DNA of 64,000 nucleotides from Escherichia phage DCP80, in the sequence record PQ671644.1; one strand, written 5' to 3'. A program made the translations under genes and the position numbers. Under the pieces are notes generated by a model. That model was not told the origin of the DNA. It did not search any database and was given only the letters and a program-made list of their open reading frames with translations. Positions 5,134 to 57,243 of the stretch are shown here, piece after piece (the stretch's first letter is position 1; the number at the start of each line of letters is the position of its first letter).

Positions 5134-5146
5134 AAAGCCTCATTAG

Positions 5147-5160
5147 GGGCCGAAGCCCCG
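5147..5160 (-). promoter_or_regulatory. C(UUCG)G tetraloop RNA hairpin downstream of rIIB
   Basis: GGGGC-TTCG-GCCCC on the coding strand; no U-run, so a structural or processing element rather than a clear terminator. Confidence 0.4.
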
Positions 5161-13775: not shown

Positions 13776-13776
13776 T

Positions 13777-14754: not shown

Positions 14755-15238
14755 ACAAACAATTGCTAAAGATGGCTCGGCTCGTGGTATTGTCCACGGG
14801 CTAGGTCACACGCCTGAATACATTGTATGGATTGGCATGAAAGCTCGGTGTTGCAATCCAACACATATTAGTTATTCTCGATATGGCGGTCGGGGTATCA
14901 CTGTTTGCGATGAATGGCTGCATGATTTTGAAAGATTTTATACAGATATGGGGCCACGACCCACTGACAAACATCAACTTGACCGAACAGATAACGATAA
15001 AGGGTACTCTCCCGATAACTGCAGATGGGTTAGTCCAGGCGAGAATGCTTTAAATAAGCGCCCGTATAATAACAACAAGTCTGGATTTAAAGGAGTCTCG
15101 TTTGATAAACGAGCTTTGAATAAACCATGGCGAGCCACTATTATGCGAAATAAAAAACAAATTCAAGTCGGAGCTTTTGCAACTCCAGAAGAAGCAAATG
15201 AAGCTCGATTAAAATATATGGAAGAACACAATGTCTAA
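14747..15238 (+). mobile_element. free-standing HNH homing endonuclease with AP2-type DNA-binding domain
   Basis: 163 aa; HNH-like DRTDNDKGYSPDNCRWVSPGEN followed by AP2-like SGFKGVSFDKRALNKPWRATIMRNKKQIQVGAFATPEEANEARLKYMEEH; start overlaps rIIB stop (ATGATTAA); absent from the other copy. Confidence 0.7.
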
Positions 15239-15440
15239 AGAAATGTTAGGTTTCCAAGCACGTGTAGTTGAAGAACATGACCAGCTGGTTTTGAAAATTA
15301 ATGCTCTTGAAGAATTTATTAAGGGCGGAGTTTTTGAAACTCTCGATGCTCGTCAACAAGGTCTTTTGATTGCCCAGTTAGATGCAATGGGTGCATATGC
15401 TCATATACTGGCAACTCGTATCTCTTATTTTGGTGAATAA
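15231..15440 (+). CDS. hypothetical protein
   Basis: 69 aa, homolog of 4936-5133; start overlaps HNH stop. Confidence 0.5.
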   Translation: MSKEMLGFQARVVEEHDQLVLKINALEEFIKGGVFETLDARQQGLLIAQLDAMGAYAHILATRISYFGE

Positions 15441-15443
15441 ATT

Positions 15444-15713
15444 ATGATTAAGCATTTCAATGTGTCAGACCGTGACATCAAAGTTTCAAATCTCCGGGGT
15501 CATCATTATGCGGGAATAGTTTACTGCGGTAAGCTCATCAAGCATGAAGGTGATGTTCACTATGGTTGGTTGGAATGTGATGAAGTAGTTGTTGGGGAAT
15601 TCCCTGACCCGAATTCTGATACATTTGATGCTAATGACCGTTTGTATTATGGCGAGCTTCACATCCGTGGAATCGTCGGTATCGATGAGGTCGTAAATGA
15701 TTCAGAAGAGTAA
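15444..15713 (+). CDS. hypothetical protein
   Basis: 89 aa, homolog of 4663-4932. Confidence 0.5.
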   Translation: MIKHFNVSDRDIKVSNLRGHHYAGIVYCGKLIKHEGDVHYGWLECDEVVVGEFPDPNSDTFDANDRLYYGELHIRGIVGIDEVVNDSEE

Positions 15714-16290
15714 AACCTGGGAGCATTTGAAAAAGATGCCCTCCTTTCTTTATACGAAGGAAGACTTAACCCCCGAATCCCTACAAAAGATTGTAGACAC
15801 TGCCAGATATTCATTGCGTAAAGACCCAGGTCAGGACCGTGAGCAAGTCATGCAAAGATGTATGGTGGCCACAATGGCTGAACAAGCTATTGCTAAATGG
15901 ACCTCCGGTTTTTTATGTGGCGGTGATGAAGATTACGATAATCCTTATTCCTTTGCATTTGATGTAGTTTCGAAGGAAGGGGTGAGAATCGAAGTCAAGA
16001 CCCACCAGTCTGGGTCCAAATGGATATCCGTGCATACTGGCCACCAGGGCGATTATCCACATGGTTACGGGATTAATCTTGGTCCTTTTATGCAACACAA
16101 GCTTGCTGACCTTATGATTATGCTCGATGTAAAAGAGACTCTCAAAGGTTATAGATTTAAACCAAAATTCCTTGCTGGACCCGGTGCTTTCGTTCCTGAG
16201 TCTGGTCTTGTGCAGAAGTCACAAGGGGATGGCTGGTACCTCCGTTCTTGTTCAGAAGAAAAATTTCCCTATCACCGGTTTACAAGCTGA
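15697..16290 (+). CDS. hypothetical protein (197 aa)
   Basis: Homolog of 4086-4679. Confidence 0.55.
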   Translation: MIQKSKTWEHLKKMPSFLYTKEDLTPESLQKIVDTARYSLRKDPGQDREQVMQRCMVATMAEQAIAKWTSGFLCGGDEDYDNPYSFAFDVVSKEGVRIEVKTHQSGSKWISVHTGHQGDYPHGYGINLGPFMQHKLADLMIMLDVKETLKGYRFKPKFLAGPGAFVPESGLVQKSQGDGWYLRSCSEEKFPYHRFTS

Positions 16291-16337
16291 ACCAACTGTG
16301 TAATAATGTCCTCATACCAACAAATAAGGACATTATC

Positions 16338-16613
16338 ATGGAACACGTTACTACTCACAACATCAAACAAATTCTTATCCAAGCACTCAAAAACAACAAC
16401 ATCAATTTTCCAACCCATGAAATTTTTGATGTGGTATTCAACGAAGTCCAGGGTCAAGTTGCATATTATGACGTTATCGTTTATCTTTCAGAATTTGAAG
16501 TCTACCATCTGACTGAAATTGCTTTCTATCTCTATCGTGGGACTGCAGATTTTACTGGGGTCGTGAATGCAGTTGGCGCATATAAAGAAGTTAAAGAGCA
16601 AATGCACAATTAA
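16338..16613 (+). CDS. hypothetical protein
   Basis: Probable start MEHVTTHN after AAGGA RBS; homolog of 3763-4038. Confidence 0.45.
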   Translation: MEHVTTHNIKQILIQALKNNNINFPTHEIFDVVFNEVQGQVAYYDVIVYLSEFEVYHLTEIAFYLYRGTADFTGVVNAVGAYKEVKEQMHN

Positions 16614-16672
16614 TTAAAAAGTAGTGTACATCAGTATGGAGTCAGTGCATAATGATTCCATACTGAGTTACC
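16612..16672 (+). promoter_or_regulatory. early promoter / stem-loop cassette (PeSL-like)
   Basis: TGTACA 16625-16630, 17-nt spacer, CATAAT 16648-16653; CAGTATGGA 16632-16640 pairs with TCCATACTG 16657-16665. Confidence 0.45.
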
Positions 16673-16688
16673 AACCTGGAGAAACAAA

Positions 16689-16952
16689 ATGAAATTTAAA
16701 TTTTATTATATTAAGCATAAAGTTACTGGGGAGTTTATTGCATTTACAACTTCATCCAATAATCAAGGTGATACTTTTACTTCATTGTTCTTATCTAGAT
16801 GGGATTCAGACCAGCCTTATTTGTCCACAAAAGAGCATCTTCAACGTATGGCGAAGGGCGAGCTAAACGATTCTTGGGATAATATTGTGAATAATTGTAT
16901 CAAGAAAGCTATCCAAGAAAATCAACTTGAAATCATTGAGGTGGAATTGTGA
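16689..16952 (+). CDS. hypothetical protein, YYxKHKVTG family paralog (copy-2-specific)
   Basis: 87 aa MKFKFYYIKHKVTG...; tandem paralog of the next gene; not present at the equivalent site in copy 1. Confidence 0.5.
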   Translation: MKFKFYYIKHKVTGEFIAFTTSSNNQGDTFTSLFLSRWDSDQPYLSTKEHLQRMAKGELNDSWDNIVNNCIKKAIQENQLEIIEVEL

Positions 16953-17215
16953 ATATTAAATTATATTACGCCAAGCACAAAGTTACAGGTATGGTTGTTG
17001 CTGCTATGTATGACGCGTCAGGCGATGGTGATGATGTTATTACAGAGTTATCTCTTTCTGATTGTAAATTTCTTCGCCCGTTGGTTGCATCAAAGCGTGA
17101 TTTAAAAAAGCTTATTGATGGTAAGCTGGACAATATTGATGGTATAGATATTTTTTATGACCTCCGCGTCGCATTGTCTGATGGATTGATTGAAATCAAA
17201 GAGGTGATATTTTGA
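16949..17215 (+). CDS. hypothetical protein, YYxKHKVTG family
   Basis: 88 aa, homolog of 3252-3518. Confidence 0.5.
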   Translation: MNIKLYYAKHKVTGMVVAAMYDASGDGDDVITELSLSDCKFLRPLVASKRDLKKLIDGKLDNIDGIDIFYDLRVALSDGLIEIKEVIF

Positions 17216-17304
17216 GCAGCAAAACCTGGTGTCTTATCTGGATGTTGTGTATCCCAGTAATTTGCGTTTGTTTTAGTTTATTATTAATGAAACTTGCATA
17301 AAGA

Positions 17305-17332
17305 GTGTACATCTCCGGTGGTTGTAGTATAA
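17305..17332 (+). promoter_or_regulatory. early-type promoter
   Basis: GTGTACAT, 17-nt spacer, TATAAT; mirror of the copy-1 element near 3130-3160. Confidence 0.4.
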
Positions 17333-17486
17333 TGAACCTATCAACTACTGGAGATGATTATGAAAAAGTTACTTAAAGCCATTTGGAACATGTTTATACT
17401 GTTTGTTGTCCTGAGCATTTTCCCAATTGTTTTTATGATTGACCATGTACGTGTTTACTTTAACTATTTCTTTTGAGGATAATACT

Positions 17487-17633
17487 ATGATAGTTATGAA
17501 AAAGTTTAAAGAATATCATTGCTATGAATGTGGCAAAAAGATTGATTCTATTCATTCATTAAACGTCTTTTCTTTTGATAATTTAAACTATGCACACATT
17601 TGGTGCCTTCGTGGAATGACTAAATTTAACTGA
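17487..17633 (+). CDS. small zinc-ribbon-like protein (copy-2-specific cassette)
   Basis: 48 aa MIVMKKFKEYHCYECGKK...HIWC (CxxC...HxxC spacing); flanked by duplicated GAGGATAATA(C/T)TATG junction. Confidence 0.4.
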   Translation: MIVMKKFKEYHCYECGKKIDSIHSLNVFSFDNLNYAHIWCLRGMTKFN

Positions 17634-17643
17634 GGATAATATT

Positions 17644-17790
17644 ATGAATTACAATTCACACTTTCAGAAATCCAATCGCCGCTTTGACTTTATGTTCAAG
17701 TTTATTGTGGCAATGATTATCCTGATTTTCATTGGTGCCATTGCAATGATTGGTTTCCAGGTCTGGATTGCTGCTGAAGTATTCACACAA
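17644..17790 (+). CDS. small membrane protein, 3' end lost in gap
   Basis: MNYNSHFQKSNRRFDFMFKF..., homolog of 2773-2979. Confidence 0.45.
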
Positions 17791-17800
17791 NNNNNNNNNN
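17791..17800. other. assembly gap (N-run)
   Basis: 10 Ns; gene content changes abruptly across it. Confidence 0.95.
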
Positions 17801-18390: not shown

Positions 18391-18564
18391 AATGACGAAT
18401 TCGATGGATTTTGATAAGATTAAATCTGACAAAAATGAGATGTTGCTTAAATTTGAAGCCGCTCGTATTAAAGCAGAAAATGAAGGTACTATTACCTATA
18501 AGCCTATCAAGTTCAGGTCTTCTCATGAACCTCTGTATGGTGTATTAATTGGAAAGGAAGCCTA
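18391..18564 (+). CDS. small hypothetical protein
   Basis: 57-aa ORF translated by eye, ends inside terminator loop. Confidence 0.3.
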
Positions 18565-18578
18565 GTGCTTCCTTTTTT
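18556..18578 (+). terminator. rho-independent terminator
   Basis: GGAAGC-CTAGT-GCTTCC followed by TTTTTT. Confidence 0.55.
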
Positions 18579-18762: not shown

Positions 18763-19782
18763 ATGAAAATTTTAAATTTAGGTGATTGGCACTTGGGTGT
18801 CAAAGCTGACGACCCATGGGCTCAAAACATTCAACGCGATGGTATTTTACAGGCGATTGCGTATTCCAAAGCGAATGGGATTAAAGTCTGGATTCAATAT
18901 GGCGATATTTTTGACGTCCGTAAGGCCGTAACGCATAAGACGATGGAATTCAGCCGTGAGATTATGGAACTCCTTCGTGAAGCAGGAATTACTATGCACA
19001 CGATAGTCGGGAACCATGACATGAATCTGAAGAATAAGATTCATCCTAATGCTATCACTGAACTCCTGAATAAGTATGACCATGTTAAAATCTACGACAA
19101 GCCAACGACTGTTGATTTTGACGGTTGTCAGATTGATATGATTCCATGGATGTGTGACGAGAACGCAACTGACATTCACCAACATATCAAAACTTCTGGT
19201 GCTGAATATTGCATCGGTCACTGGGAATTAACCGGGTTTTATTTCTATAAAGGATTGAAATCCCACGGACTTGAGCCTGATTTCCTTAAGAAGTACAAGC
19301 AAGTTTGGTCTGGTCACTTCCACACAATTTCAGAAGCTGCGAACGTTAAGTACATAGGAACACCATGGACATTAACAGCAGGTGATGAGAACGACCCACG
19401 CGGGTTCTGGGAATTTGATACCGAAACCGAAGAGATGAAATTTATTCCGAATGAAACCACCTGGCATCGGAAGATTTTTTATCCAAACGAAACTATTAAC
19501 TACGACGACTTCAAAGACTTATCAGTCCGTGTTATTGTAGAAAAAGTCGATAAAGACCTGACCAAGTTCGAATCCGAATTAGAAAAGCGTGTGCATGAAT
19601 TGCGTGTTGTCAATAAGGTTGATAACAGTGTTGATACGACTGACTCCGAAGAAGAGTTAGACATAAAACGCTTAACTGATATGATGGCAGAATATATTGA
19701 TGCATTACCTGACACCAATGAGAAAGAATCAAAAGCTCTTAAAGCATTGGCCAACAAATTATATCTTGAGGTGCAACCGTGA
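18763..19782 (+). CDS. 47: recombination endonuclease subunit gp47 (Mre11-like)
   Basis: MKILNLGDWHLGVKADD...IQYGDIFDVRKA...HTIVGNHD...GHWELTGFYFYKGLKSHGLEPDFLKKYKQVWSGHFHTISEAANVKYIGTPWTLTAGDENDPRGFW matches recalled T4 gp47; track ORF starts at upstream TTG. Confidence 0.85.
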   Translation: MKILNLGDWHLGVKADDPWAQNIQRDGILQAIAYSKANGIKVWIQYGDIFDVRKAVTHKTMEFSREIMELLREAGITMHTIVGNHDMNLKNKIHPNAITELLNKYDHVKIYDKPTTVDFDGCQIDMIPWMCDENATDIHQHIKTSGAEYCIGHWELTGFYFYKGLKSHGLEPDFLKKYKQVWSGHFHTISEAANVKYIGTPWTLTAGDENDPRGFWEFDTETEEMKFIPNETTWHRKIFYPNETINYDDFKDLSVRVIVEKVDKDLTKFESELEKRVHELRVVNKVDNSVDTTDSEEELDIKRLTDMMAEYIDALPDTNEKESKALKALANKLYLEVQP

Positions 19783-20042
19783 AACTTTATGATTTTAATG
19801 AAGCGGGGCTTGAACATATCCGCGAATGTGATGTGGTTGACGACGATAATCAACCGAATACTATTAAGTATTGGTTTGAAGCTATCACTGACCGGGAAAC
19901 CGGTCAACTTATCAAAGTCTATGTAGTCACCGATTGGGCCGTAGAATTTAGTTTTAATGTAATGGAAGATGATACTCCAGAAACATTAATTCATATGGCT
20001 GAATCATGCATCAAGGATGCTTATAATGATGAAAATGTATAA
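19779..20042 (+). CDS. hypothetical protein
   Basis: 87-aa ORF between 47 and 46, overlapping stop/start. Confidence 0.45.
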   Translation: MKLYDFNEAGLEHIRECDVVDDDNQPNTIKYWFEAITDRETGQLIKVYVVTDWAVEFSFNVMEDDTPETLIHMAESCIKDAYNDENV

Positions 20043-20237
20043 ACATGATTTTCATATTGGCGATGGCTGGTTCGGTAATGTAGAATGGGACGTGGATGGT
20101 TCTTGGTATACCGGAACTATGTATGTCACTTCTGAATATTCTGAAGGTGTTTCATGGGCCATGGAACTTGACGACGTGTTTGCTTCTTCCGAAGAAATGC
20201 TAGAATATGCTGAACAAACAATTCGTGAGAACAATAC

Positions 20238-21920
20238 ATGAAAACGTTTAAGCTAAAGAAAGTAACGTATAAAAATATTATGTCTGTAGGCCAGCAGCCT
20301 ATTACAATCCAACTTGATAAGGTCCAAAAGACCTTAGTCACTGGTAAAAATGGCGCTGGTAAATCGACATTCCTTGAAGCTGTTACTTTTGCTTTATTTG
20401 GTAAGCCTTTTCGTGATGTTAAGAAAGGGCAATTAATTAACTCAAGTAACAAGAAAGACCTTTTGGTCGAACTGTGGATGGAATATGATGGAAAAGAATA
20501 CTATATCAAGCGCGGGCAAAAACCCAACGTTTTTGAAATCTCTTGTGGCGGTGAACGTCTTGATGAATCTGCCAGCAGTAAAGACTTCCAAGCGGAATTT
20601 GAACAGCTCATCGGAATGTCCTATGCGAGCTTCAAACAGATTGTCGTACTCGGCACAGCTGGATATACCCCTTTTATGGGCCTATCCACTCCTGCAAGAA
20701 GAAAACTTGTCGAAGACCTTTTAGAGGTTTCTGTACTGGCCGATATGGATAAGCTGAACAAATCTCTTATCCGTGAAGTCAATAGTCAAATCCAGGTGAT
20801 GGATGTGCAGCATGACGGGATTGTTCAACAGATTAAAATCTATCAGGACAACGAAGACCGTCAAAGAAAATTATCAGGCGATAATCTGTTGCGACTGCAA
20901 ACGATGTATGATGAACTTGCCACAGAAGCACGTGGAATCAAGGCAACTATCGAAGAAGCAACGACAAGACTGACCGAGATAATCTTGGGAGAAGACCCTG
21001 AGCACGAACTCACAAAGTTAAAGCAGGAATCATTCCTGATTAAATCGAAGATTGACGATTATCGAAAGGTTGTTGGTCTGTACGAGAAAGGTGGTTGTTG
21101 TCAGACCTGTGCTAGTCAGTTGCATCCAGGAGACCCTATTGTCGCCAGGATTGAGTCAAAGATTGAAGAATGTAATGCATCGGCTGATAAGCATAAAGCT
21201 CGCCAGAATGCTGTTCAGGAGCAATTTGATGCGTATACCAAGGCAAGACAAAACCAGCGTACAATAGCTCAAGACATTCAAACCAAGAAACAAACCTTAG
21301 TCCAGACTGTCGAAAAAGCTAAAAAGGTTAAAGCATTAATCGAGCAAGCCAAGTCAGAATTCATCGACCATGCAGCAGACATTAAAATGCTTCAAGACCA
21401 GCTTGATAAAATAGTCAAACAGAAATCTGACCTTGTGATGGAAAAATATCAACGTGGCATCCTAACGGATATGTTGAAAGATTCCGGTATCAAAGGTGCG
21501 ATTATTAAGAAATATATTCCTATCTTTAATAAGCAGATAAACGCTTACCTTAAAGTTATGGAAGCTGATTATAGTTTTACGTTAGATGAAGAGTTCAACG
21601 AAACGATTAAATCTCGTGGACGTGAAGACTTCAGCTATGCATCATTTAGCCAGGGTGAAAAAGCTCGTATCGATATTGCATTGCTGTTTACATGGCGTGA
21701 TATTGCTGCGAAAGTATCTGGTGTTAATATTAACACCTTGATTCTGGATGAAGTTTTTGACTCGGCCACCGATGTAGAGGGTGTTAAAGCAATTGCTACC
21801 ATCCTGAACAAATTGGAAGACACCAACATCTTTATTATCAGTCACCGAGACCATGACCCGGAAGCATACGGGCAACATCTCCAGATGAAAAAAGTTGGTC
21901 GATTCACTGTTATGGAATAA
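20238..21920 (+). CDS. 46: recombination endonuclease subunit gp46 (Rad50/SbcC-like ATPase)
   Basis: 560 aa; Walker A GKNGAGKST, ...GKPFRDVKKGQLINSSNKK..., C-terminal FSQGEKARIDIALLFTWRDIA...LILDEVFD match recalled T4 gp46. Confidence 0.9.
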   Translation: MKTFKLKKVTYKNIMSVGQQPITIQLDKVQKTLVTGKNGAGKSTFLEAVTFALFGKPFRDVKKGQLINSSNKKDLLVELWMEYDGKEYYIKRGQKPNVFEISCGGERLDESASSKDFQAEFEQLIGMSYASFKQIVVLGTAGYTPFMGLSTPARRKLVEDLLEVSVLADMDKLNKSLIREVNSQIQVMDVQHDGIVQQIKIYQDNEDRQRKLSGDNLLRLQTMYDELATEARGIKATIEEATTRLTEIILGEDPEHELTKLKQESFLIKSKIDDYRKVVGLYEKGGCCQTCASQLHPGDPIVARIESKIEECNASADKHKARQNAVQEQFDAYTKARQNQRTIAQDIQTKKQTLVQTVEKAKKVKALIEQAKSEFIDHAADIKMLQDQLDKIVKQKSDLVMEKYQRGILTDMLKDSGIKGAIIKKYIPIFNKQINAYLKVMEADYSFTLDEEFNETIKSRGREDFSYASFSQGEKARIDIALLFTWRDIAAKVSGVNINTLILDEVFDSATDVEGVKAIATILNKLEDTNIFIISHRDHDPEAYGQHLQMKKVGRFTVME

Positions 21921-22146
21921 TGCTTTAAACAAGGATGTTATAATAGAGGCTATTATGGCTGACTTCTTAACCGGGCAGCATTTACTGGCTGTCCCTGAAA
22001 TTAAACGGTATGTGTTAGTTAATACCTTTTCGAAAGATGAACACCTTGTTACTGAACGTGACTTACAAAACGCTTTCGGTGAAGAATATGTTAAAATAAT
22101 CGCGAACAGACACAATGCCTGGTTCGCATATGAATACTTTGATTAA
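21895..22146 (+). CDS. hypothetical protein
   Basis: 83-aa ORF between 46 and 45. Confidence 0.4.
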   Translation: MVDSLLWNNALNKDVIIEAIMADFLTGQHLLAVPEIKRYVLVNTFSKDEHLVTERDLQNAFGEEYVKIIANRHNAWFAYEYFD

Positions 22147-22578
22147 TTGATAATGAATAGAGAGAATATTATGAACAACGTAACTGCTAAAGATATCCAA
22201 GTTAAAACCATCCGCACCGACGCTAACCCACATAACCAAAACCGCATCCGCAAATCCTGGGTCCTGGCGTGTGATGAAGTATCTGCCACCCGTCTGCAGT
22301 CTCTGCCGCAAGAAGTTAAATTCATGTTGTATGGTGTTATCGATACTGATGTATCTGATAAGTGGATTGAACTGATGCAACGTCATTACAACGATTCACT
22401 GGCTGCTGGTGCTAAACTGGTTATCGACCGTGACGGTTCCGAACGTCTTGAAGATGATTACTGTGTTAACTCTGACGACCATCTGGTGCAAGCTGGTTCT
22501 ATTATTGCTGCGCAACTTCCAGAGTATATTGAATCTCTTCCGGAAGCTATCCACAAACAAATGGCAGTTGTTGCTTAA
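22147..22578 (+). CDS. hypothetical protein, RpbA-like by position only
   Basis: 143-aa ORF in the position T4 rpbA occupies upstream of gene 45; sequence identity not verified. Confidence 0.4.
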   Translation: MIMNRENIMNNVTAKDIQVKTIRTDANPHNQNRIRKSWVLACDEVSATRLQSLPQEVKFMLYGVIDTDVSDKWIELMQRHYNDSLAAGAKLVIDRDGSERLEDDYCVNSDDHLVQAGSIIAAQLPEYIESLPEAIHKQMAVVA

Positions 22579-22608
22579 TTAATTTTGATTTGAATAAAAG
22601 GTAATTAA

Positions 22609-23304
22609 ATGAAATTCTCTAAAGACACTATCGCAGTTTTGAAAAACTTCACCTCCATCTACTCTGGCATTATGCTTAAACCAGGCAATACCATCCTGAC
22701 TCGTTCTGTAACTGGAGCGTCATATGGCGAATCCGAAATCAATGATACAATTGACTTTGAAGCTGCGATTTATGACCTGAACGGCTTCTTAAGTATCCTG
22801 GGCCTGGTAACTGACCAAGCTGAAGTATCTCTGGCTGAAGACGCATCAAATATCATTATCAAAGACCAACGTTCAACGATTCACTGGCCTGCGGCTGACC
22901 CGAGCACTATCGTGTTCCCTGCTAAGAAGATTCCTTTCCCGGTAGCTAAGGTTATCTTCGACCTGAAAGGCAGTGACCTGCAGCAGCTTCTGCGTGTGGC
23001 TGGTGGTTTGTCTCTGGACACTTTTGCAATCACCAACAAAGACGGTAAGATTGTTATCCATGGTTATAACCAGCTCGAAGATAAAGAATTAGCGCGTCCA
23101 TTGTATTCCCTGGTGTGTGGTGATTACGAAGGCGATGCAGCGTTTAAATTTATCATTAACAAACTGAACATGAAAATGATTCCGGCTGATTACCGTGTTA
23201 TGCTTTGGGCAAAAGATGATAAATTTGCTACGAAGTTTGAAGGCACACAAGCAAGCTATGTGATTGCAATGGAACAAGGCTCTAGCCACGAATTCCAAGA
23301 TTAA
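22609..23304 (+). CDS. 45: sliding clamp gp45
   Basis: 231 aa; LKNFTSIYSGIMLK...IDFEAAIYDLNGFL...IHWPAADPSTIVFP...KIPFPVA...DLQQLLRV...WAKDDKFATKFEG matches recalled T4 gp45. Confidence 0.9.
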   Translation: MKFSKDTIAVLKNFTSIYSGIMLKPGNTILTRSVTGASYGESEINDTIDFEAAIYDLNGFLSILGLVTDQAEVSLAEDASNIIIKDQRSTIHWPAADPSTIVFPAKKIPFPVAKVIFDLKGSDLQQLLRVAGGLSLDTFAITNKDGKIVIHGYNQLEDKELARPLYSLVCGDYEGDAAFKFIINKLNMKMIPADYRVMLWAKDDKFATKFEGTQASYVIAMEQGSSHEFQD

Positions 23305-23307
23305 TAA

Positions 23308-23325
23308 ATGGGGCTTCGGCCCCAT
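23308..23325 (+). promoter_or_regulatory. C(UUCG)G tetraloop RNA hairpin between genes 45 and 44
   Basis: ATGGGGC-TTCG-GCCCCAT, no U-run. Confidence 0.45.
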
Positions 23326-23360
23326 GGAGTACAAAGTAGAAACTAATATGAGGAAAATAT

Positions 23361-24320
23361 ATGTTAACGGTTAATGACAAAGAATTCATGTGGGAACAAA
23401 AATACCGCCCAGGTACATTATCAGAGTGTATTCTCCCGGCTCATGATAAAGAAACATTAGAGGCGATTGTTAAAAAAGGTTTGATTCCTAACTTGATTCT
23501 GGTCAGTAGTTCCCCTGGTACTGGTAAGACAACAGTTGCAAAAGCTATGTGCGCAGATACGAATTCTGATATGCTGTTTGTTAACGGCTCCGATTGCCGA
23601 ATTGACTTTGTGCGTAATGAATTGACTCGCTTTGCATCATCCAAATCAATCGAAGGTCGCCGTAAGGTAATTGTTATCGATGAGTTCGACCGTGCAGGTC
23701 TGGCAGAATCACAACGGCATCTTCGTAGCTTTATGGAAGCTTATTCAAGCAACTGTTCAATCATTATGACCGCGAACAATATTGATGGCATCATCACTCC
23801 GTTGCAGTCTCGTTGTCGCGTCATTAAGTTTGGTGAAGCAACTCCGGCTGACCAGACTACCATGATGAAAGAGATGATTCATCGTGCAGTCGCGATATGT
23901 AAAAACGAAGGCGTTGAAATCGAAGACCTGAAAGTTGTTGCTGCTTTGGTTAAGCATAACTTCCCGGACCTGCGTAAGACAATTAATGAGCTTGACCGTT
24001 ACTCTGCAAAGGGTGTTATCGATTCCGGTATTCTAAGCATCGTGACAAACAATCGCACGCCAATTGATGATGTGATTGATGCCCTTAAGGACCGTAACTT
24101 TAAAGTTCTCCGTGGTCTGGCTCCTAAGCATGCAAATGATTATTCAAGCTTCATTGCAAAGCTGGCTGATGAAATGTATGGCAAACTGACTGGTGCAAGT
24201 ATTATCCGCATGTATGAGATTGTAGGTGAGAATAATCAGTATCATGGCATTGCAGCCAATACCGAAGTTCACTTGACTTATCTGTTTGCTCAACTGGCTG
24301 GGGAAATGAAATGGCTGTAA
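23361..24320 (+). CDS. 44: clamp loader large subunit gp44 (AAA+)
   Basis: 319 aa; WEQKYRP, Walker A SPGTGKTT, Walker B VIVIDEFDR, sensor SRC; synteny 45-44-62. Confidence 0.9.
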   Translation: MLTVNDKEFMWEQKYRPGTLSECILPAHDKETLEAIVKKGLIPNLILVSSSPGTGKTTVAKAMCADTNSDMLFVNGSDCRIDFVRNELTRFASSKSIEGRRKVIVIDEFDRAGLAESQRHLRSFMEAYSSNCSIIMTANNIDGIITPLQSRCRVIKFGEATPADQTTMMKEMIHRAVAICKNEGVEIEDLKVVAALVKHNFPDLRKTINELDRYSAKGVIDSGILSIVTNNRTPIDDVIDALKDRNFKVLRGLAPKHANDYSSFIAKLADEMYGKLTGASIIRMYEIVGENNQYHGIAANTEVHLTYLFAQLAGEMKWL

Positions 24321-24742
24321 GTCTCTTTGATGATGACGTTCAATTAAACGAACATGAGGTTGCGTGGAAATCACGCGACTTTAACAAAATTCAGGAATTG
24401 TCCGATTCATACAAAGAGAAAGCAGAAAATGAATTGTTCGCGATTCTTAACGACATAACCGTTAGCAAAAAACCACGGAACCTGATTCAATCGGAAAACT
24501 ACAATAAATTCTGGCTGGACAATGCCTTGAGTCAACATGTCGATTGCATCATGCAGGTGAACGTGATGAACTTAATCGGTTCTGGATTAACAGACCAACA
24601 GCATTATAATTATTTGCTGCATGCGGTTCCACAAGGCAAGCGTTATGGCAAATGGGCGAAGGCTGAACCGGATGTAGTCAGCGTCCAGCTTGTGTTAAAG
24701 CTTTTGATGAAATATTATACAATTAATGCAGATGATGCTTTG
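24311..24742 (+). CDS. 62: clamp loader small subunit gp62, 3' end lost in gap
   Basis: MAVSLFDDDVQLNEHEVAW...KEKAENE...MNLIGSGL...NYLLHAVPQGKRYGKWAK matches recalled T4 gp62; ATG overlaps gp44 stop. Confidence 0.8.
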
Positions 24743-24760
24743 NNNNNNNNNNNNNNNNNN
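24743..24760. other. assembly gap (N-run)
   Basis: 18 Ns; strand and gene content switch across it. Confidence 0.95.
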
Positions 24761-24910
24761 ACGAATCTGACGTTTAGTCGGTCGCGCAACGTAAGCTTGT
24801 GTAGTTACTCGTCCAAAAACACCATACTTAGGCGAAGGAGTATCAATAAAGACTTCCCACTGGCAAGAGTAGCTATATATTGCTTTAGAGAATTGGGTCA
24901 AAACAAACAT
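24761..24910 (-). CDS. hypothetical protein, 3' end lost in gap
   Basis: MFVLTQFSKAIYSYS...; ATG embedded in TTAATATG junction with upstream gene. Confidence 0.4.
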
Positions 24911-24911
24911 A

Positions 24912-25271
24912 TTAACCTCGCTTCATGAAGGCATTAAAAATCTGGTCATCAATATCAGTAGGCGGTTCTTGAGCTTTGACCCAAGCCCCTTCCAGAATGT
25001 CATTCGCTTCAGTAGATAACATGACCCCAATTTCGGGGTTTCCCGTTATCCAGGCGGCGCAATCACGTACATTCTTTTTATCAAATGGATAGCCACGAGT
25101 ATCTTCATAAGGTCCATTCATTACCAGGAATGAGCGAGCCTTTATGATAATATCATCTTTAACGATAATATAACCAATCGCTTGATTAAACTGAGGGTCG
25201 CGGAATTCATAATGAGCATTACCATCATTATTGCTCGCCAGTTCAAAATTCAGAAAATTGTAATCATTCAT
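24912..25271 (-). CDS. hypothetical protein with shared C-terminal module DDQIFNAFMKR
   Basis: 119-aa ORF; last 13 codons plus stop/start junction are nucleotide-identical to the end of the upstream gene. Confidence 0.5.
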   Translation of the reverse strand: MNDYNFLNFELASNNDGNAHYEFRDPQFNQAIGYIIVKDDIIIKARSFLVMNGPYEDTRGYPFDKKNVRDCAAWITGNPEIGVMLSTEANDILEGAWVKAQEPPTDIDDQIFNAFMKRG

Positions 25272-25272
25272 A

Positions 25273-25707
25273 TTAATCTCGCTTCATGAAGGCATTAAAA
25301 ATCTGGTCGTCAACTGAATATACAGGGGTTTCCAGAAGTTTCAAAAGACTGTTTTTGATGTACTTACCCGGGATACCCTTAACAATACTGTCATTCAACT
25401 CATTATCAGGGTTGATGTCTTTAAATTCAAACCCGTCAAACTCAACCTTGTCAGGAATACCGTCAGCGAAAAAATAAACCAATTGGTGCATTGTATTGCG
25501 CGAAAATAATTTAGACTTGACCGCAATAAGTTCTTGCCAATGGTTTAATTCTTTGTTAAGAAGTTTATGAGCAAACGTAATTCTATTATCACTATCAACA
25601 AGAAAATAACCCAGGTATTGAATCTCGTCGCTCCAAAACACCCTGTATGCCTGCGCATTTGGATTTTTACAACGAAGTTTTTTGATAACCAAATTTCTGT
25701 TAATCAT
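25273..25707 (-). CDS. hypothetical protein with shared C-terminal module DDQIFNAFMKR
   Basis: Probable start MINRNLVIKK at 25707, 1 nt after sp stop, GGTGA RBS; track ORF extends into sp. Confidence 0.5.
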   Translation of the reverse strand: MINRNLVIKKLRCKNPNAQAYRVFWSDEIQYLGYFLVDSDNRITFAHKLLNKELNHWQELIAVKSKLFSRNTMHQLVYFFADGIPDKVEFDGFEFKDINPDNELNDSIVKGIPGKYIKNSLLKLLETPVYSVDDQIFNAFMKRD

Positions 25708-25708
25708 T

Positions 25709-26002
25709 TTATTCACCTGTAACCCATTGAACAATTTTGCTATTGTCAAATGAAGCATCGCAATACAGAATATAGTTATACTGCATAACGTCACCAGAAG
25801 ACAATTGGTCAGATACTTCTTTAACCATATCAGGGCGGTCACGTTTGGTTATGTTCATGATATCAGCACGAATCTGGGTTTCAACTTCAGATTGCTCTGC
25901 TGTCATAGACCATTCACAAAGGTTTTTATCAAGCCCAGCAGTAACTGGAGCTGTACCACATGATGCTACGGTAAGAATTGCTGCAATAATTAACTTTTTC
26001 AT
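25709..26002 (-). CDS. sp: Spackle-like periplasmic protein (lysozyme inhibitor / superinfection exclusion)
   Basis: 97 aa; signal peptide MKKLIIAAILTVASC, then ...DKNLCEWSMTAEQSEVETQIRADIMNI...GDVMQYNYILYCD resembles recalled T4 Sp; lies between 41 and 61. Confidence 0.6.
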   Translation of the reverse strand: MKKLIIAAILTVASCGTAPVTAGLDKNLCEWSMTAEQSEVETQIRADIMNITKRDRPDMVKEVSDQLSSGDVMQYNYILYCDASFDNSKIVQWVTGE

Positions 26003-26062
26003 AATGTTCTCCTCAGTAGTTGATATGGATAATATACTGCATTATCCCTTTGATGTAAACTG

Positions 26063-26266
26063 TTATTTTTCGTTAGAACGATAATCACATTCAAAAACTT
26101 TATTGCCATTAACAAAGGCTTTAACCAGCGCATTATTCACTTCTGCATACTGCACTGTAACCCATTCAATCATATTTTTGTCACTGACATCCAGGGCGGT
26201 TTCTTTGGTAAACATATTACCATTTTCAAACCAACCAATAAACACTACGTTCTCTAATTTATACAT
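26063..26266 (-). CDS. dmd: Dmd-like antitoxin (discriminator of mRNA degradation)
   Basis: 67 aa; VVFIGWFENGNMFTKE...QYAEVNNALVKAFV resembles recalled T4 Dmd; synteny near sp. Confidence 0.5.
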   Translation of the reverse strand: MYKLENVVFIGWFENGNMFTKETALDVSDKNMIEWVTVQYAEVNNALVKAFVNGNKVFECDYRSNEK

Positions 26267-26584
26267 TTAGATTTCCTCACAAAACGCCCAAGCGGCGTGA
26301 TAAACTGTTGCGCCTTTAGTATCATTTAAACAAACCACGTCAACAGGTGCAATCACACGATAAAGACGGGGTTCTCCTCCATATGAGCGAGCTGCTCTTC
26401 CTGCATAGATACGCGCCAAACCAATATCTTCAGTAAAAAACACACGCCCTAAATTTTTCTTACGTCCAACTTCTGACAGAACACCAGTTGCATCAGGAGG
26501 ACAAAGCATATTTTGGATTCCAGCATTAGAGCTTGACCCATGATAATAAACTTTGTATTCTGCCTTGCAATCAATGGTTTTCAT
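26267..26584 (-). CDS. small protein with PARP-like NAD-binding motifs (candidate minimal ADP-ribosyltransferase-fold protein)
   Basis: 105 aa; YYHGSSSNAGI (H-G-S), GRVFFTEDIGLARIYAG (aromatic-rich strand), GGEPRLYRV (candidate catalytic E); motif-level only. Confidence 0.35.
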   Translation of the reverse strand: MKTIDCKAEYKVYYHGSSSNAGIQNMLCPPDATGVLSEVGRKKNLGRVFFTEDIGLARIYAGRAARSYGGEPRLYRVIAPVDVVCLNDTKGATVYHAAWAFCEEI

Positions 26585-26620
26585 TTTATTCTCCAGTAGT
26601 TGATAGAGTCATTATAACAT

Positions 26621-26644
26621 AAGAAAAAGGGGCTGTAAGCCCCT
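26621..26644 (-). terminator. rho-independent terminator
   Basis: Minus strand AGGGGC-TTACA-GCCCCT followed by TTTTTCTT. Confidence 0.5.
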
Positions 26645-26652
26645 TTGTTCAC

Positions 26653-26955
26653 TTACGCCAACTCATAGTTGTGCATAGTCAGACAACGAATTTTCCCAGT
26701 AGTTGGGTGCATAACAGTCACACTAATTGTGTAATCATCACACACGTTAACAAAAGGTTCAGCGATAACATATACTGCCCCACCCGCCAACAGGTATTCA
26801 CGAAGAGAGCTGCGAACAGATGAAGGTTGAACATCGCTTTTGAGCTTTATTAATTTACCAGTTTGAATGCCTGATGCGATAAGAGCAGCACAGTTTTCAT
26901 CACGGCGAGCGAATTGTCCAAAATAGTAACGATTCATGTCGGTTTGATTAAACAT
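26653..26955 (-). CDS. hypothetical protein
   Basis: 100-aa ORF. Confidence 0.45.
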   Translation of the reverse strand: MFNQTDMNRYYFGQFARRDENCAALIASGIQTGKLIKLKSDVQPSSVRSSLREYLLAGGAVYVIAEPFVNVCDDYTISVTVMHPTTGKIRCLTMHNYELA

Positions 26956-27033
26956 ATGGTTTTCCTTTTAACAGTTGGTTTATTGTGTAACTCAGTATGA
27001 AATCATTATGTCCTAAGACAAGGGGCTTGTACA

Positions 27034-27282
27034 CTATTTTAATTCATTAATTAAATGAAAATCTTGTGCATTGAAAGTAATGAAAAAATAATCATTCCCT
27101 TCAACTGAAGCATGACAGGCAACACTACACCAGCGCCTTGCTCTGTTCAAGGAGCAATCCAAAATTTTAAAAGGCTTCAGACCAACAATGGCAGCTGTTC
27201 TTTTATTATGCTCACAAATATCAGCATACTTTTGGAGAGCTTCTTCAGATTTGAACTGGTAATGCACATTAACTAATAACAT
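27034..27282 (-). CDS. hypothetical protein
   Basis: 82-aa ORF, Cys-rich. Confidence 0.45.
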   Translation of the reverse strand: MLLVNVHYQFKSEEALQKYADICEHNKRTAAIVGLKPFKILDCSLNRARRWCSVACHASVEGNDYFFITFNAQDFHLINELK

Positions 27283-27347
27283 TTTATTATCCTCATCAGT
27301 AGTTGATGGGATAATAGTACACCCTTTTTATGGTGATGTAAACCTCT

Positions 27348-27376
27348 AAAATGAAAAAGACCCGAAGGGTCTTTAG
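27348..27376 (-). terminator. rho-independent terminator with UUCG tetraloop after gene 41
   Basis: Minus strand AAAGACCC-TTCG-GGTCTTT then TTCATTT; overlaps gp41 stop. Confidence 0.5.
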
Positions 27377-28812
27377 AATTTCATTTGAGCAGCAAGGTCG
27401 TCCAGGTCGCTCCTGTTGACCCTGGTTTGTCTATTCATTTCAGCCTGGCGATTCATCTCACCGGTGGCTTCTTTAACCGTAGGGCCTTGTTTAGGAGCTG
27501 AATCATCATCAACCTCGTACCAGCGCTGATTACCTTTCTTAACACCCATCTTGAATTTATTATAGTAGTTCTTATCGCCATAACGAGACTTAAGCTGTTT
27601 GATTAACTGCAGACCCATTTGAGCGAATTCTTCAGTCTCAACAACACCCAACATAAAGTCGGCCGTGTGAGCAATACCAAAGGATTCTGCGATGTCAGCC
27701 ATATCAATCTCAGCTGCAACGTTCGCGCCCCTGGTTGTCTGTGCTGCAGTCCACAGGACCACATTTTTCTCAACAGCCAGACCACGAAGTTCTTCTGCAA
27801 CCATCTTAATCAGGCCGTAACTGTTTTCGGTAAACGTTTTCAGTCTTGAGCTTGCACAGATTGCCAGGTAGTCAACAATAATCACATCCGGCACAAACCC
27901 TTGCTTCAGTTTGTATTCATTCAATAATGCACGGAAGGTATCTGCATGAGCACCGCCAGTTGGATATTGTTTTATCTTCAGAGTCCCAAGAGTCCCTGAT
28001 GCCCGCCATTTTTCCATCTTAGCTTTGTATTCTGCCCATGATATATGACCTTCATCAATATCATCCAGAGACACATCCAGCAAGTTGGCATCAATACGTT
28101 TGGCACATACTTCTTCAGCCATTTCCATGCTTATATAAAGCACGTTATGACCAGTCTGAAGATAGTCGGCCGCTAACGAACAAAGTCCCAGAGATTTCCC
28201 GACGTTTGTCCCGGCCAGTAAAACGTTCTCTGTGCCGTACTCAACTCCACCCTTCGTAATTTTATTCAGGATGTTAATACGGAACGGAACCTTCTTCGAT
28301 TTGTTCAGATAAGTCTGGAATCGAGCTTCGTAATCGTTTAACCAGTCATGGCCCAGTGCAGAGTCAAAACAGATAGACAATGCATCGCGCATGATATCAG
28401 GGATAGCACCAATATCTGGGATTCGTTTATCACGTTTATCTTTCGGAAGTTCGGCATTACTCTGGATTTCGATAATCCTGGATGTGGCATTGAACATCGC
28501 AGACTTCTGTACATACTTCTCGGTTTCTCTAACCAACCATTCCTGGTCTTCTGGAGTATCAGCCAGAACTCCTAAGAGTTTCTTTGTGCCTTCATATTCG
28601 ACTTCAGAAAGGTCAGAACTGTCAAGCGCAATATCAAGTGCAGTCTTAGTTGGTACCGCTTGATATTCTTTTACGTGTTCGTTAATCGTATTAAAAAGGG
28701 TCTTTGCAGGACCCTTTTCAAAATATGTGTTATTCAGATATGGCCAGACTTTAACAAAATATTCCTTGTTAAAGAGTAGCTGGGATAAAATAGTTTCTAC
28801 CACTTCCACCAC
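27373..28812 (-). CDS. 41: replicative DNA helicase gp41 (DnaB-like)
   Basis: 479 aa; Walker A GTNVGKS, Walker B IIVDYL, ...LGTLKIKQYPTGGA..., RecA-like C-terminal domain; matches recalled T4 gp41. Confidence 0.9.
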   Translation of the reverse strand: MVEVVETILSQLLFNKEYFVKVWPYLNNTYFEKGPAKTLFNTINEHVKEYQAVPTKTALDIALDSSDLSEVEYEGTKKLLGVLADTPEDQEWLVRETEKYVQKSAMFNATSRIIEIQSNAELPKDKRDKRIPDIGAIPDIMRDALSICFDSALGHDWLNDYEARFQTYLNKSKKVPFRINILNKITKGGVEYGTENVLLAGTNVGKSLGLCSLAADYLQTGHNVLYISMEMAEEVCAKRIDANLLDVSLDDIDEGHISWAEYKAKMEKWRASGTLGTLKIKQYPTGGAHADTFRALLNEYKLKQGFVPDVIIVDYLAICASSRLKTFTENSYGLIKMVAEELRGLAVEKNVVLWTAAQTTRGANVAAEIDMADIAESFGIAHTADFMLGVVETEEFAQMGLQLIKQLKSRYGDKNYYNKFKMGVKKGNQRWYEVDDDSAPKQGPTVKEATGEMNRQAEMNRQTRVNRSDLDDLAAQMKF

Positions 28813-29141
28813 CTCTTTTTCATTTTAATTTTATCAATTTCATCTTGTATTTGCATTGTAACACACTTTTCTACATGCACTGCAAGCTCCGCTTTGCGGT
28901 CTTCAGAAGGGGTGCCGAAATCAACTGAAACTTTTCCAGATGGTTCAATTTTAATTCCGGTTACGTACACAATGTGACTGGACCCATCAGGGAGTGATAA
29001 CAGAATTTCCTGCCGTACAGTTCCCATGGATTGCCGGATAATCTCCAAACTTTTTTCGTAGTAAGGTACAGAAGGAGCCTTAGCTCCCTCCGCATCTTTC
29101 TCGAAATTATCTAAATCAGATAAATCGATATCATTCATCAA
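28797..29141 (-). CDS. 40: gp40-like protein
   Basis: 114-aa ORF between uvsX and 41 with overlapping junctions; synteny-based. Confidence 0.55.
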   Translation of the reverse strand: MMNDIDLSDLDNFEKDAEGAKAPSVPYYEKSLEIIRQSMGTVRQEILLSLPDGSSHIVYVTGIKIEPSGKVSVDFGTPSEDRKAELAVHVEKCVTMQIQDEIDKIKMKKRWWKW

Positions 29142-30309
29142 GGTCTTCCATCATATCTAAATCGTTTTCGATATCTGCCGCAGACGGTTTTGTCTTACCT
29201 TCAGGAGCAGTGTATTTTTCAACCTTGGAGGCAATAAGCGCATCAACTTCGGCATCAACAACAGCATTGCTATCGATTGCACCCAGTTGGTAATGGCGTT
29301 TGATTGCATCACGGAAAGGTTCGTGCTTGAACAGCGGGCCCCAGAATTCGGTGCAGTTAGTATCTTTTGCGCGCCATGATTTTTCTTCGCGGACCATTTC
29401 ACCGGTCTCAACATCAAGATATTCACGGTTATACCAACCAACTTTTGGTTTCACCACAAATCCGATTTCCATTGCCATATCAAGCAGGCCAGAATACGGG
29501 TCAATCCCACCATCGAATTTTACATCAATGAAGAATTTACTTTTCTCTTTGACCATACGAGATTTTTCGGCGTTCAGAACAAATTGGAAGCCTTCAAGTT
29601 CTTTACCAGTTTCTTTAATCTGGCGTTTGCCGATAATGAATACGGTGTCCGCAGAATACATAACACCTGTACCGCCGGTCATAACGGTTTTACTGTACAT
29701 CTCAATCGTCTCGATTGTATGGTTAACCGCGACACAAGGAATATCCTTGATGCTAAAATACGGGGTAACAATACGGAACAGAGATTTCAGGGATTTGGCA
29801 CGAGTCATATCACCAACGACTTTTTCGTTCATCGCATCTTCTGTTTCTTTTTTCGACGCCATGTTACCGATTGAGTCAATAAAAATAATGACTTTTTCAC
29901 CACGCTCAATTGCTTCAAGCTGGTTAACCATATCAACTTTCAATTGTTCAACCGACTGGATTGGTGTATGGATAACACGTTCCGGGTCAACTTTCATTGC
30001 ACGAAGATATGCTTCTGTGATACCAAATTCTGAATCATAGAACAAACAGATTGCATCGGGGTATTTGTTCATATATGCAGAGACCATCGTTAAACCCATA
30101 TTGGATTTAAAGTGTTTTGACGGACCAGCAAAAATAGTCAAACCTGACTGCATACCACCATCTAGTGCACCGCTGATTGCAATGTTCAGCATCGGGATTT
30201 TTGTACGAACTACATCTTTACCATTAAAGAACTTGGACTTGGTAAGAGTCGCGGTCATTTTGGATGTAGAAGCTTTAATCAAACGGGATTTCAAATCTGC
30301 AATAGACAT
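29131..30309 (-). CDS. uvsX: recombinase UvsX (RecA-like)
   Basis: 392 aa; LKSRLIKASTSK...KIPMLNIAISGALDGGMQSGLTIFAGPSKHFKSN...LFYDSEFGIT...MVREEKSWRAKDTNCTEFWGPLFKHEPFRDAIKRHYQLG matches recalled T4 UvsX. Confidence 0.9.
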   Translation of the reverse strand: MSIADLKSRLIKASTSKMTATLTKSKFFNGKDVVRTKIPMLNIAISGALDGGMQSGLTIFAGPSKHFKSNMGLTMVSAYMNKYPDAICLFYDSEFGITEAYLRAMKVDPERVIHTPIQSVEQLKVDMVNQLEAIERGEKVIIFIDSIGNMASKKETEDAMNEKVVGDMTRAKSLKSLFRIVTPYFSIKDIPCVAVNHTIETIEMYSKTVMTGGTGVMYSADTVFIIGKRQIKETGKELEGFQFVLNAEKSRMVKEKSKFFIDVKFDGGIDPYSGLLDMAMEIGFVVKPKVGWYNREYLDVETGEMVREEKSWRAKDTNCTEFWGPLFKHEPFRDAIKRHYQLGAIDSNAVVDAEVDALIASKVEKYTAPEGKTKPSAADIENDLDMMEDLDE

Positions 30310-30886: not shown

Positions 30887-30940
30887 NNNNNNNNNNNNNN
30901 NNNNNNNNNNNNNNNNNNNNNNNNNNNNNNNNNNNNNNNN
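30887..30940. other. assembly gap (N-run)
   Basis: 54 Ns. Confidence 0.95.
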
Positions 30941-32250: not shown

Positions 32251-32278
32251 AAAATAAAAAAGGGACCCGAAGGTCCCC
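32251..32278 (-). terminator. rho-independent terminator with UUCG tetraloop after gene 32
   Basis: Minus strand GGGACC-TTCG-GGTCCC followed by TTTTTTATTTT. Confidence 0.6.
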
Positions 32279-32283
32279 TTATA

Positions 32284-48085: not shown

Positions 48086-48141
48086 ATATTTTCCTCATAT
48101 TAGTTTCTACTTTGTACTCCATGGGGCCGAAGCCCCATTTA

Positions 48142-53228: not shown

Positions 53229-53246
53229 CTTAGGGCCCGAAGGCCC
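53229..53246 (-). promoter_or_regulatory. C(UUCG)G tetraloop hairpin between genes 37 and 38
   Basis: Minus strand AGGGCC-TTCG-GGCCCT. Confidence 0.4.
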
Positions 53247-53251
53247 TTTTC

Positions 53252-57056: not shown

Positions 57057-57224
57057 ATGAAAACATTCAAAGATTTTATCAACGAAGATATGGTTGCAGG
57101 TGATGCAGGTGGAAACCCAACTAATATCACAACAGGTACCACTTCCGGGGCAGTTGTCAATAAAGGCCCTGAACAAATCCCATCAAAAAAGCGTAAGAAC
57201 AAAGACGATAAACCTACAGTATAA
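57057..57224 (+). CDS. small basic protein with N-terminal capsid-targeting-like sequence (candidate internal protein)
   Basis: 55 aa; AAGGGGG RBS; MKTFKDFINE resembles the T4 internal-protein CTS MKTYQEFIAE with an I-x-E cleavage motif; C-terminus KKRKNKDDKPTV. Confidence 0.45.
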   Translation: MKTFKDFINEDMVAGDAGGNPTNITTGTTSGAVVNKGPEQIPSKKRKNKDDKPTV

Positions 57225-57226
57225 TG

Positions 57227-57243
57227 GTCCTTCGGGGCCATTG
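57227..57243 (+). promoter_or_regulatory. UUCG tetraloop hairpin upstream of gene 61
   Basis: TGGTCC-TTCG-GGGCCA (one G-U pair), no U-run, 12 nt before the gene 61 RBS. Confidence 0.35.

Follow-up and report, generated by a model that had tools for sequence, protein, structure and literature searches.

Positions 23,308 to 23,325 of the DNA analysed here, a stretch of 64,000 nucleotides from Escherichia phage DCP80 (PQ671644.1) that is referred to as the window, hold a short hairpin with a UUCG loop closed by a C-G pair, located between genes 45 and 44. The locus raises the question of what such a hairpin does at this junction, and whether it belongs, as a first-pass annotation of the window had proposed, to a family of functional RNA elements at gene boundaries.

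Composition of the window

BLAST searches against a phage collection and the complete SP18 genome revealed that the window consists of about 11 contig-like pieces of a T4-type phage similar to Shigella phage SP18 (Gaprivervirus, Straboviridae), from which the gene map used here was transferred. The pieces are 95-99% identical to SP18 and are ordered from longest to shortest without regard to orientation, with runs of 10-50 N between them (8994-9040, 17791-17800, 24743-24760, 30887-30940, 36511-36520, 41760-41800, 47031-47080, 52286-52300, 57005-57040, and 61506-61540). Genes are truncated at the contig junctions, and open reading frames spanning the N-gaps are artefactual, for example a “gene 37” of 1329 amino acids, whose start at 57241 is an artefact since the reading frame runs across the N-gap at about 57005-57040.

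Three regions of the window are doubled, with about 96% identity between the copies: 2833-8993 and 10925-17790 (inverted), 18987-24365 and 47081-52285 (inverted), and 24894-30121 and 41801-47030 (direct). The record is therefore composed of contigs of two closely related SP18-like strains, and thus the hairpin pairs 8909/10992, 23308/48121, and 27356/44266 each represent one locus present twice.

Inventory of C(UUCG)G hairpins

Stems were extended around every CTTCGG, and a hairpin was counted when its stem reached 5 bp or more. Twelve C(UUCG)G-type hairpins were found in the window, 11 of them intergenic and sense to both flanking genes; the only one in coding DNA (37747-37760) is antisense in dexA. 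The intergenic hairpins have perfect stems of 5-9 bp, a C-G closing pair and a UUCG loop, and nearest-neighbour predictions of their stability gave -11 to -17 kcal/mol. All sites named in the first-pass annotation were recovered to within a few bases. The size that it gave to the family was inflated by the duplicated contigs: the 11 intergenic sites exist, and they reduce to nine independent loci, all sense, once the duplicates are removed. No Rfam family was detected, either in the whole window at gathering thresholds or in the interval 23200-23450 at E ≤ 10.

The hairpins were separated into two classes. Those followed by a U-run (class T) lie after g004, a small ORF downstream of gene 39, and after gene 41, gene 32, soc, and an ORF of phrog_2243. 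At the g004/g003 junction, the terminator-like GGUCUCC(UUCG)GGAGACC occupies 8909-8926 on the minus strand (to 8904 with UUUUU; -15.6 kcal/mol, z -3.7), and its second-strain copy at 10992-11009 on the plus strand (to 11014 with the U-run) precedes a promoter-like TGTACA-17-TAAGAT. After gene 41 (41/g041), AAAGACC(UUCG)GGUCUUU was found at 44266-44283 on the minus strand (to 44259 with UUCAUUU), followed by the early-promoter-like TTTACA-17-TACTAT. The first-pass annotation had counted both post-41 copies, and only this one is a strict tetraloop; the minus-strand copy of the other strain (27356-27374, entry 27348..27374; AAAGACCCUUCGGGUCUUU) is a 1-nt insertion variant that folds with a triloop and fails the strict C(UUCG)G definition. 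The extra C, by which C(UUCG)G becomes a triloop or pentaloop variant, reflects natural variation or else an error in homopolymer sequencing.

The terminator-like hairpin after gene 32 (32/frd.2a), AAGGGGACC(UUCG)GGUCCCUUU, lies at 32259-32280 on the minus strand (to 32249 with the U-run) and is followed by TGTACA-17-CATAAT. The one after soc (soc/mrh.2), AGGGAACC(UUCG)GGUUCCCU, lies at 59755-59774 on the plus strand (to 59779 with UUUUU), has an orthologue in T4 at 15303-15324, and is followed by the MotA-box-like TGCTTTTA and TATAAT. After the phrog_2243 ORF, AAGGACCC(UUCG)GGGUCCUU with the tail UUUUAUUUU occupies 61760-61779 on the plus strand (to 61788; -17.3 kcal/mol, z -3.7), with TGTACA-17-CATAAT at 61798-61826.

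These sites (8909/10992, 44266, the variant 27356, 32259, 59755, and 61760) gave the best sense-strand hits of the terminator scan, in agreement with the earlier claim that the members with a U-run are terminators, and promoter-like sequences of early or middle type were found 15-25 nt downstream (hexamers at 32240-32212, 27342-27314, 44253-44225, and 61798-61826). It is thus plausible that class T hairpins are intrinsic terminators closing transcription units, and together with the downstream promoter-like sequence each would form a terminator-promoter cassette. Composite terminator/promoter PeSL cassettes occur in T4-like phages (Comeau 2014, PMC4122927; also Arbiol 2010), and class T resembles them and intrinsic terminators in its GC-rich stem, its U-run, and the promoter-like -35/-10 or MotA box 15-25 nt downstream, although the published stem-loop consensus of PeSL varies from one pair of phages to another and makes no mention of UUCG. 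Five of six T4-like genomes share a terminator downstream of gene 32, and conserved terminators in such genomes also lie downstream of gene 23, between genes 35 and 36, and upstream of alt (PMC1524935).

Strong terminator-like hairpins without UUCG were observed as well, namely AAAGGGGC-UUA/UGUAA-GCCCCUUU between g040 and g039 (26626-26646 and 43537-43557, both minus strand) and GGAAAGGAAGC-CUAGU-GCUUCCUUUUU after a-gt.2 (18551-18577, plus strand), and thus the tetraloop is not part of every terminator of this phage. A second recurrent family of intergenic hairpins encloses a -10-like TATAAT or CATAAT in the loop, e.g., TGGGGTCAGAGTATAATGACCCCA; it occurs in the SP18 gaps motB/motB.1, ndd/g277, 55.2/55.3, denV/e, g277/ndd.1, and frd.1/g251, and in the window at about 2098-2173 on the minus strand, as inverted repeats flanking predicted early-promoter -10 elements.

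Hairpins without a U-run (class I) are located within operons, between a stop codon and the next ribosome-binding site, and lack the U-run and promoter that characterize the PeSL cassettes. The class contains the gp45/gp44 hairpin AUGGGGC(UUCG)GCCCCAU (23308..23325, plus strand; -13.4 kcal/mol, z -2.5), with an identical second-strain copy at 48121..48138 on the minus strand; the rIIB/denB.1 hairpin GGGGC(UUCG)GCCCC (5146..5159, minus strand), with the denB.1 Shine-Dalgarno (SD) sequence GAGG 4 nt downstream; and the gp37/gp38 hairpin AGGGCC(UUCG)GGCCCU (53232..53247, minus strand), directly followed by the gp38 SD AAGGA and by a gp38 that is a T2-type adhesin (phrog_2056). The latter hairpin has orthologues at 159625-159644 in T4 and 160196-160217 in SP18. 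The fourth member, UAAUGGUCC(UUCG)GGGCCAUUG (57222..57243, plus strand; -16.8 kcal/mol, z -3.0), had been placed before gene 61; it exists, and lies more precisely between 61.1 and 61, where it contains the 61.1 stop codon and has the gene 61 SD GAGGAAA 4 nt downstream. A TATAAT upstream of it, at about 57220, was considered as a promoter; transcripts from it would begin inside the loop, so that the hairpin would not form a 5' cap.

Three of the four class I hairpins end 1-4 nt ahead of the next SD. Their tails (GGAGUACAAAG, UAAUGAGG, AAGGAUUU, and AAAUGAGG for 23308, 5146, 53232, and 57222, respectively) have no U-tract, and all four failed the terminator scan on the sense strand; no terminator-promoter cassette was present at 23308-23325. 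Class I hairpins probably act as a block to 3' exonucleases or as an aid to translation. The stability or processing role that the first-pass annotation favoured for them is among several uses known for such hairpins. At the rIIB/denB.1 locus the two strains differ: in one of them the spacer is occupied by a 163-aa HNH homing-endonuclease ORF (phrog_374, E 8e-59) at 14747-15238 on the plus strand, and the other strain has at the same place (5134-5174) a 41-nt spacer with the C(UUCG)G hairpin.

Excess, location, and orientation of the hairpins

The window contains 40 CTTCGG motifs against 17.5 ± 4 expected, and its 12 hairpins with stems of at least 5 bp compare with 0.37 on average, and never more than 3, in 100 first-order Markov simulations. 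At the same stem length, the complete genomes of SP18 and T4 contain 26 and 21 C(UUCG)G hairpins, against 1.15 and 0.88 expected, respectively. Among hairpins with stems of at least 6 bp, CTTCGG was the commonest hexamer of closing pair plus tetraloop in the window, in SP18, and in T4.

The hairpins are concentrated in intergenic DNA. Although the non-coding share of SP18 is 5.7%, 22-23 of its 26 hairpins lie within or border it. Twenty-one of the 26 are sense and intergenic or at the edge of a CDS, three are in coding DNA, one is between the convergent genes 24 and rnlB, and one is intergenic and antisense downstream of hoc. UUCG was the top tetraloop among the SP18 sense-strand intergenic hairpins (15 of 83, the runners-up having 4). 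When stems of at least 4 bp were accepted in T4, 23 hairpins were obtained, of which 16 are intergenic, four coding-sense, and two coding-antisense, and one (2834-2857) overlaps the annotated gene 60 bypass region.

The claim that the hairpins always lie on the coding strand held for intergenic sites in the window (nine of nine loci, in plus and minus gene blocks), in T4 (17 of 17, the gene 60 bypass hairpin included), and in SP18 with one exception (22 of 23). In SP18, TTCG is found on the plus strand in the plus late-gene blocks and on the minus strand in the early-gene blocks. Loop orientation thus tracks transcription in the blocks of both strands, which argues for a function at the level of RNA rather than DNA, and the proposal that the C(UUCG)G hairpins act as RNA-level elements is well supported. 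The sole exception concerns an identical 22-mer, AAAGGGACCTTCGGGTCCCTTT, that occurs twice on the SP18 plus strand (107367-107388 and 109086-109107) and flanks the minus-strand rnlB-g193 block; the second copy presents CGAA on the hoc sense strand, and the T4 hoc site has sense UUCG.

The comparison of SP18 with T4 showed nine junctions at which both genomes carry a hairpin: upstream of 39, after soc, upstream of 43, 45/44, rI.-1/mobD.5, after hoc, upstream of alt, 30.9/30.8, and 37/38. Orthologous hairpin sites in T4 include 31899-31914, 159625-159644, and 15303-15324.

Position and conservation of the 45/44 hairpin

Gene 45 closes with the tandem stops UAAUAA, 4 nt ahead of the hairpin at 23308-23325, and the AUG of gene 44 follows 35 nt beyond the end of the hairpin. 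The hairpin folds independently, 24 nt upstream of the gene 44 SD (GAGGAAAA, at about 23350). To follow it through the family, 45/44 spacers were gathered from 15 IMG/VR loci, T4, and 12 further genera (Kanagawavirus, Dhakavirus, Winklervirus, Jiaodavirus, Gelderlandvirus, Roskildevirus, Krischvirus, Pseudotevenvirus, and Tulanevirus, plus Acinetobacter, Serratia, and Shewanella phages); these 12, T4, and the window formed a set of 14 lineages.

A GC-rich hairpin was present at the junction in all 14 Straboviridae lineages sampled, in spacers of 46-74 nt, and its loop was C(UUCG)G in eight of them. In the alignment, which adds three IMG/VR loci, UUCG was the loop of 10 of the 13 aligned tetraloop hairpins; the remaining 45/44 loops were UACG, GAAA, UAAA, triloops, and larger loops. 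The stems have diverged widely (the T4 hairpin is AGAGGGC(UUCG)GCCUUU), with double, compensatory changes at all seven pairs and 93% of cells paired, a figure that is inflated because the alignment was anchored on the predicted hairpin of each spacer. Shuffled or slid controls of the alignment scored far lower. Together with the orientation, this covariation with retained structure bears out the view of a functional RNA. The presence of a hairpin at any one junction is not rare in itself, since about half of the same-strand SP18 gaps of 30-120 nt bear a GC-rich one (41 of 81, 16 of which are CTTCGG).

A U-rich stretch follows the 45/44 hairpin in T4, Winklervirus, Roskildevirus, Krischvirus, Pseudotevenvirus, and Tulanevirus, and its occurrence in so many genera suggests that the ancestral role may be partial termination, not stabilisation. 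Two further candidates at this site were rejected. The complement of the hairpin passes a weak T-tail criterion as an antisense terminator, yet this T-tail is the complement of the UAAUAA stops, and the loop is consistently sense genome-wide. A small ORF from the ATG at 23323 is not conserved, reading M-E-Y-stop in relatives. In one IMG/VR relative with an identical gp45 (L006; UViG_2706795408, 2228-2806), an extra ORF of 192 amino acids lies straight after the 45/44 hairpin, with the GGAG after the hairpin (GGAGAAUAAAAUG) as its SD; this ORF may encode a free-standing Seg-like endonuclease.

A GGAGUA motif downstream of the 45/44 hairpin

Directly 3' of the hairpin, at 23326..23336 on the plus strand, lies GGAGUACAAAG, which is distinct from the gene 44 SD and unpaired in the MFE fold. 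Its (U)GGAGUA is shared by Gaprivervirus, Dhakavirus, Kanagawavirus, and two IMG/VR lineages. Compared with the RegB/S1 consensus GGAGRAYARAA (PMC1702504), which calls for a single-stranded GGAG with an A-rich 7-mer behind it, GGAGUACAAAG matches at 9 of 11 positions, the deviations being U at the fifth and G at the eleventh. SP18 encodes regB and contains 11 perfect GGAGAAUAAAA-type SD sites.

If the RegB endoribonuclease and ribosomal protein S1 cut at the GGAG, the gene 45 mRNA would be left with a C(UUCG)G hairpin as an exonuclease-proof 3' end, and what becomes of the 44-62 message would be uncoupled from it. It is unlikely that the hairpin and the GGAGUA(Y)(W)AAG that stands in place of the U-rich tail in Gaprivervirus, Dhakavirus, and Kanagawavirus constitute a dedicated RegB processing module; the conserved GGAGUA just 3' of the hairpin, resembling a RegB site, is possibly the one new detail. 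Upstream of gene 43, a C(UUCG)G hairpin has the tail AUUUGGAGUAUA in T4 (29952-29969) and UGUAGUAUAA in SP18 (26873-26892), and these tails resemble the GGAGUA of the SP18-type 45/44 hairpin.

Discussion

The hairpins of the window represent an already known phenomenon and match the T4 family of Tuerk et al. (1988), a link that is absent from the first-pass annotation, whose interpretation as a whole is partly supported. As relayed in PMC8948821 and PMC2811024, CUUCGG hairpins were first described in T4 by Tuerk et al. (1988, PNAS 85:1364). In PMC8948821, (X)2-8CUUCGG(Y)2-8 is described as frequent between phage genes, above all in T4 (citing Tuerk 1988), the hairpins as exceptionally heat-stable and able to block reverse transcriptase, and the one in the gene 32 leader as stabilising the gene 32 mRNA (summarising Tuerk 1988 and Gorski 1985). 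UUCG is also often present in T4 intergenic stem-loops and terminators (PMC1702504). The window hairpins share with the T4 hairpins of Tuerk 1988 a Watson-Crick stem of 2-9 bp, the C-G closing pair, the UUCG loop, and the intercistronic sense placement, in the same phage family. The stem sequences differ, however, T4 lacks the 61.1/61 and rIIB/denB.1 hairpins, and SP18 has no counterpart of the T4 hairpins in gene 60 and after gene 23. Very probably, therefore, the window holds classic T4-type CUUCGG hairpins, a general strong RNA hairpin of an AT-rich genome that is put to at least two uses. Since several roles are documented, the “family” is one structural device serving several purposes.

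At the 45/44 junction, there is no U-tract, and the spacer supplies no promoter for the essential downstream genes, so that RNA polymerase most likely reads through. It would pass the hairpin, which would then work post-transcriptionally. The polycistronic 45-44-62 RNA may be cut in the AU-rich spacer, or transcription may occasionally terminate there; 3'-to-5' exonucleases would halt at the hairpin, leaving a stable gene 45 message, and this would yield more sliding clamp than clamp loader. By analogy with intercistronic stabilisers, 23308-23325 is most likely a barrier to 3'-to-5' exonucleases. Selective RNA processing and stabilisation, as with the E. coli REP elements and the cip-cel operon (PMC4423207), offers the comparison, having a stable stem-loop without U-tract after the cistron of the more abundant subunit, a likeness that is functional only. 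A search of the accessible literature for T4 Term-seq or 3'-end mapping gave no usable result, nor did one for transcript mapping at 45-44; Hsu and Karam (1990) is cited in PMC2988021.

A different reading, possible but doubtful, is that class I hairpins act chiefly in translation of the gene that follows, by keeping its ribosome-binding site unpaired, by offering a standby platform, or by bringing a distant SD near the AUG. The proximity of three of the four class I hairpins to the next SD fits this reading, which also has a documented precedent: in T4 genes 38 and 25, a hairpin bridges a split SD and AUG, shortening the spacing in gene 38 from 22 nt to 5 nt (PMC3014915). By position, the T4 hairpin at 159625-159644 is this gene 38 enhancer, and the T4 and SP18 37/38 C(UUCG)G hairpins are the same element; SP18 retains this arrangement: a distance of 23 nt lies between GGAG and AUG, the hairpin stands within it, and no SD separates hairpin and AUG. 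The window hairpin at this junction (53232-53247), however, is followed by the ordinary SD AAGGA, so that bridging is unneeded. The 45/44 hairpin is an independent fold 24 nt away from the gene 44 SD, and the prevalence of UUCG in the loop would be left unexplained.

It is also rather unlikely that all members, the 45/44 hairpin included, are terminators or attenuators, those without a U-run being weak, factor-assisted versions that lower transcription of the downstream gene. Such attenuation would likewise account for an excess of gp45 over gp44/62, and the U-rich tract after the 45/44 hairpin in T4 and five other genera speaks in its favour. At other such junctions, too, the upstream gene is needed in more copies, as with SP18 gp19 (tail tube) before gp20 (portal). 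The class I tails nevertheless lack a U-tract and the hairpins were negative in the sense-strand terminator scan, and no promoter-like sequence was found between hairpin and start codon of genes 44, 61, and 38, so that efficient termination would silence essential genes.

That the elements are DNA palindromes, acting as hot-spots of recombination or insertion where genes are shuffled and homing-endonuclease genes enter, or as protein-binding sites, and not as RNA, is quite improbable. An HNH endonuclease ORF does replace the rIIB/denB.1 hairpin in one strain, the 192-aa ORF is inserted straight after the 45/44 hairpin and its GGAG, identical 14-22-mers occur at several loci, and PeSL terminator/promoter motifs have been proposed as mediators of modular shuffling (PMC4122927). 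A duplex palindrome is indifferent to TTCG versus CGAA, yet orientation tracks transcription both ways, and the stems diverge freely with pairing kept; any part in recombination more likely follows secondarily from the sharing of short regulatory sequences. Chance, a by-product of base composition, or an assembly artefact with contig ends at palindromes, as might be suspected of a patchwork of N-joined contigs in which two hairpins lie about 100-200 nt from a junction, has practically no probability and is refuted by the simulations (0.37 expected, 12 observed) and by the same hairpins in the complete SP18 and T4 genomes, and eight of the 10 contig junctions have no hairpin nearby.

The abundance, intercistronic placement, and stability of CUUCGG in T4 have been textbook knowledge since 1988, and the terminator, gene 60 bypass, and gene 38 initiation-enhancer roles are already documented. 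The present analysis sets the terminator-promoter class apart from the intra-operon class, and shows that, in T4-like contigs and even in fragmentary metagenomic ones, the motif can be relied on to indicate transcript strand and the boundaries of operons. It also documents the retention of the 45/44 hairpin across distant Straboviridae genera, whereby the hypothesis that this element bears on the stoichiometry of clamp and clamp loader becomes testable.
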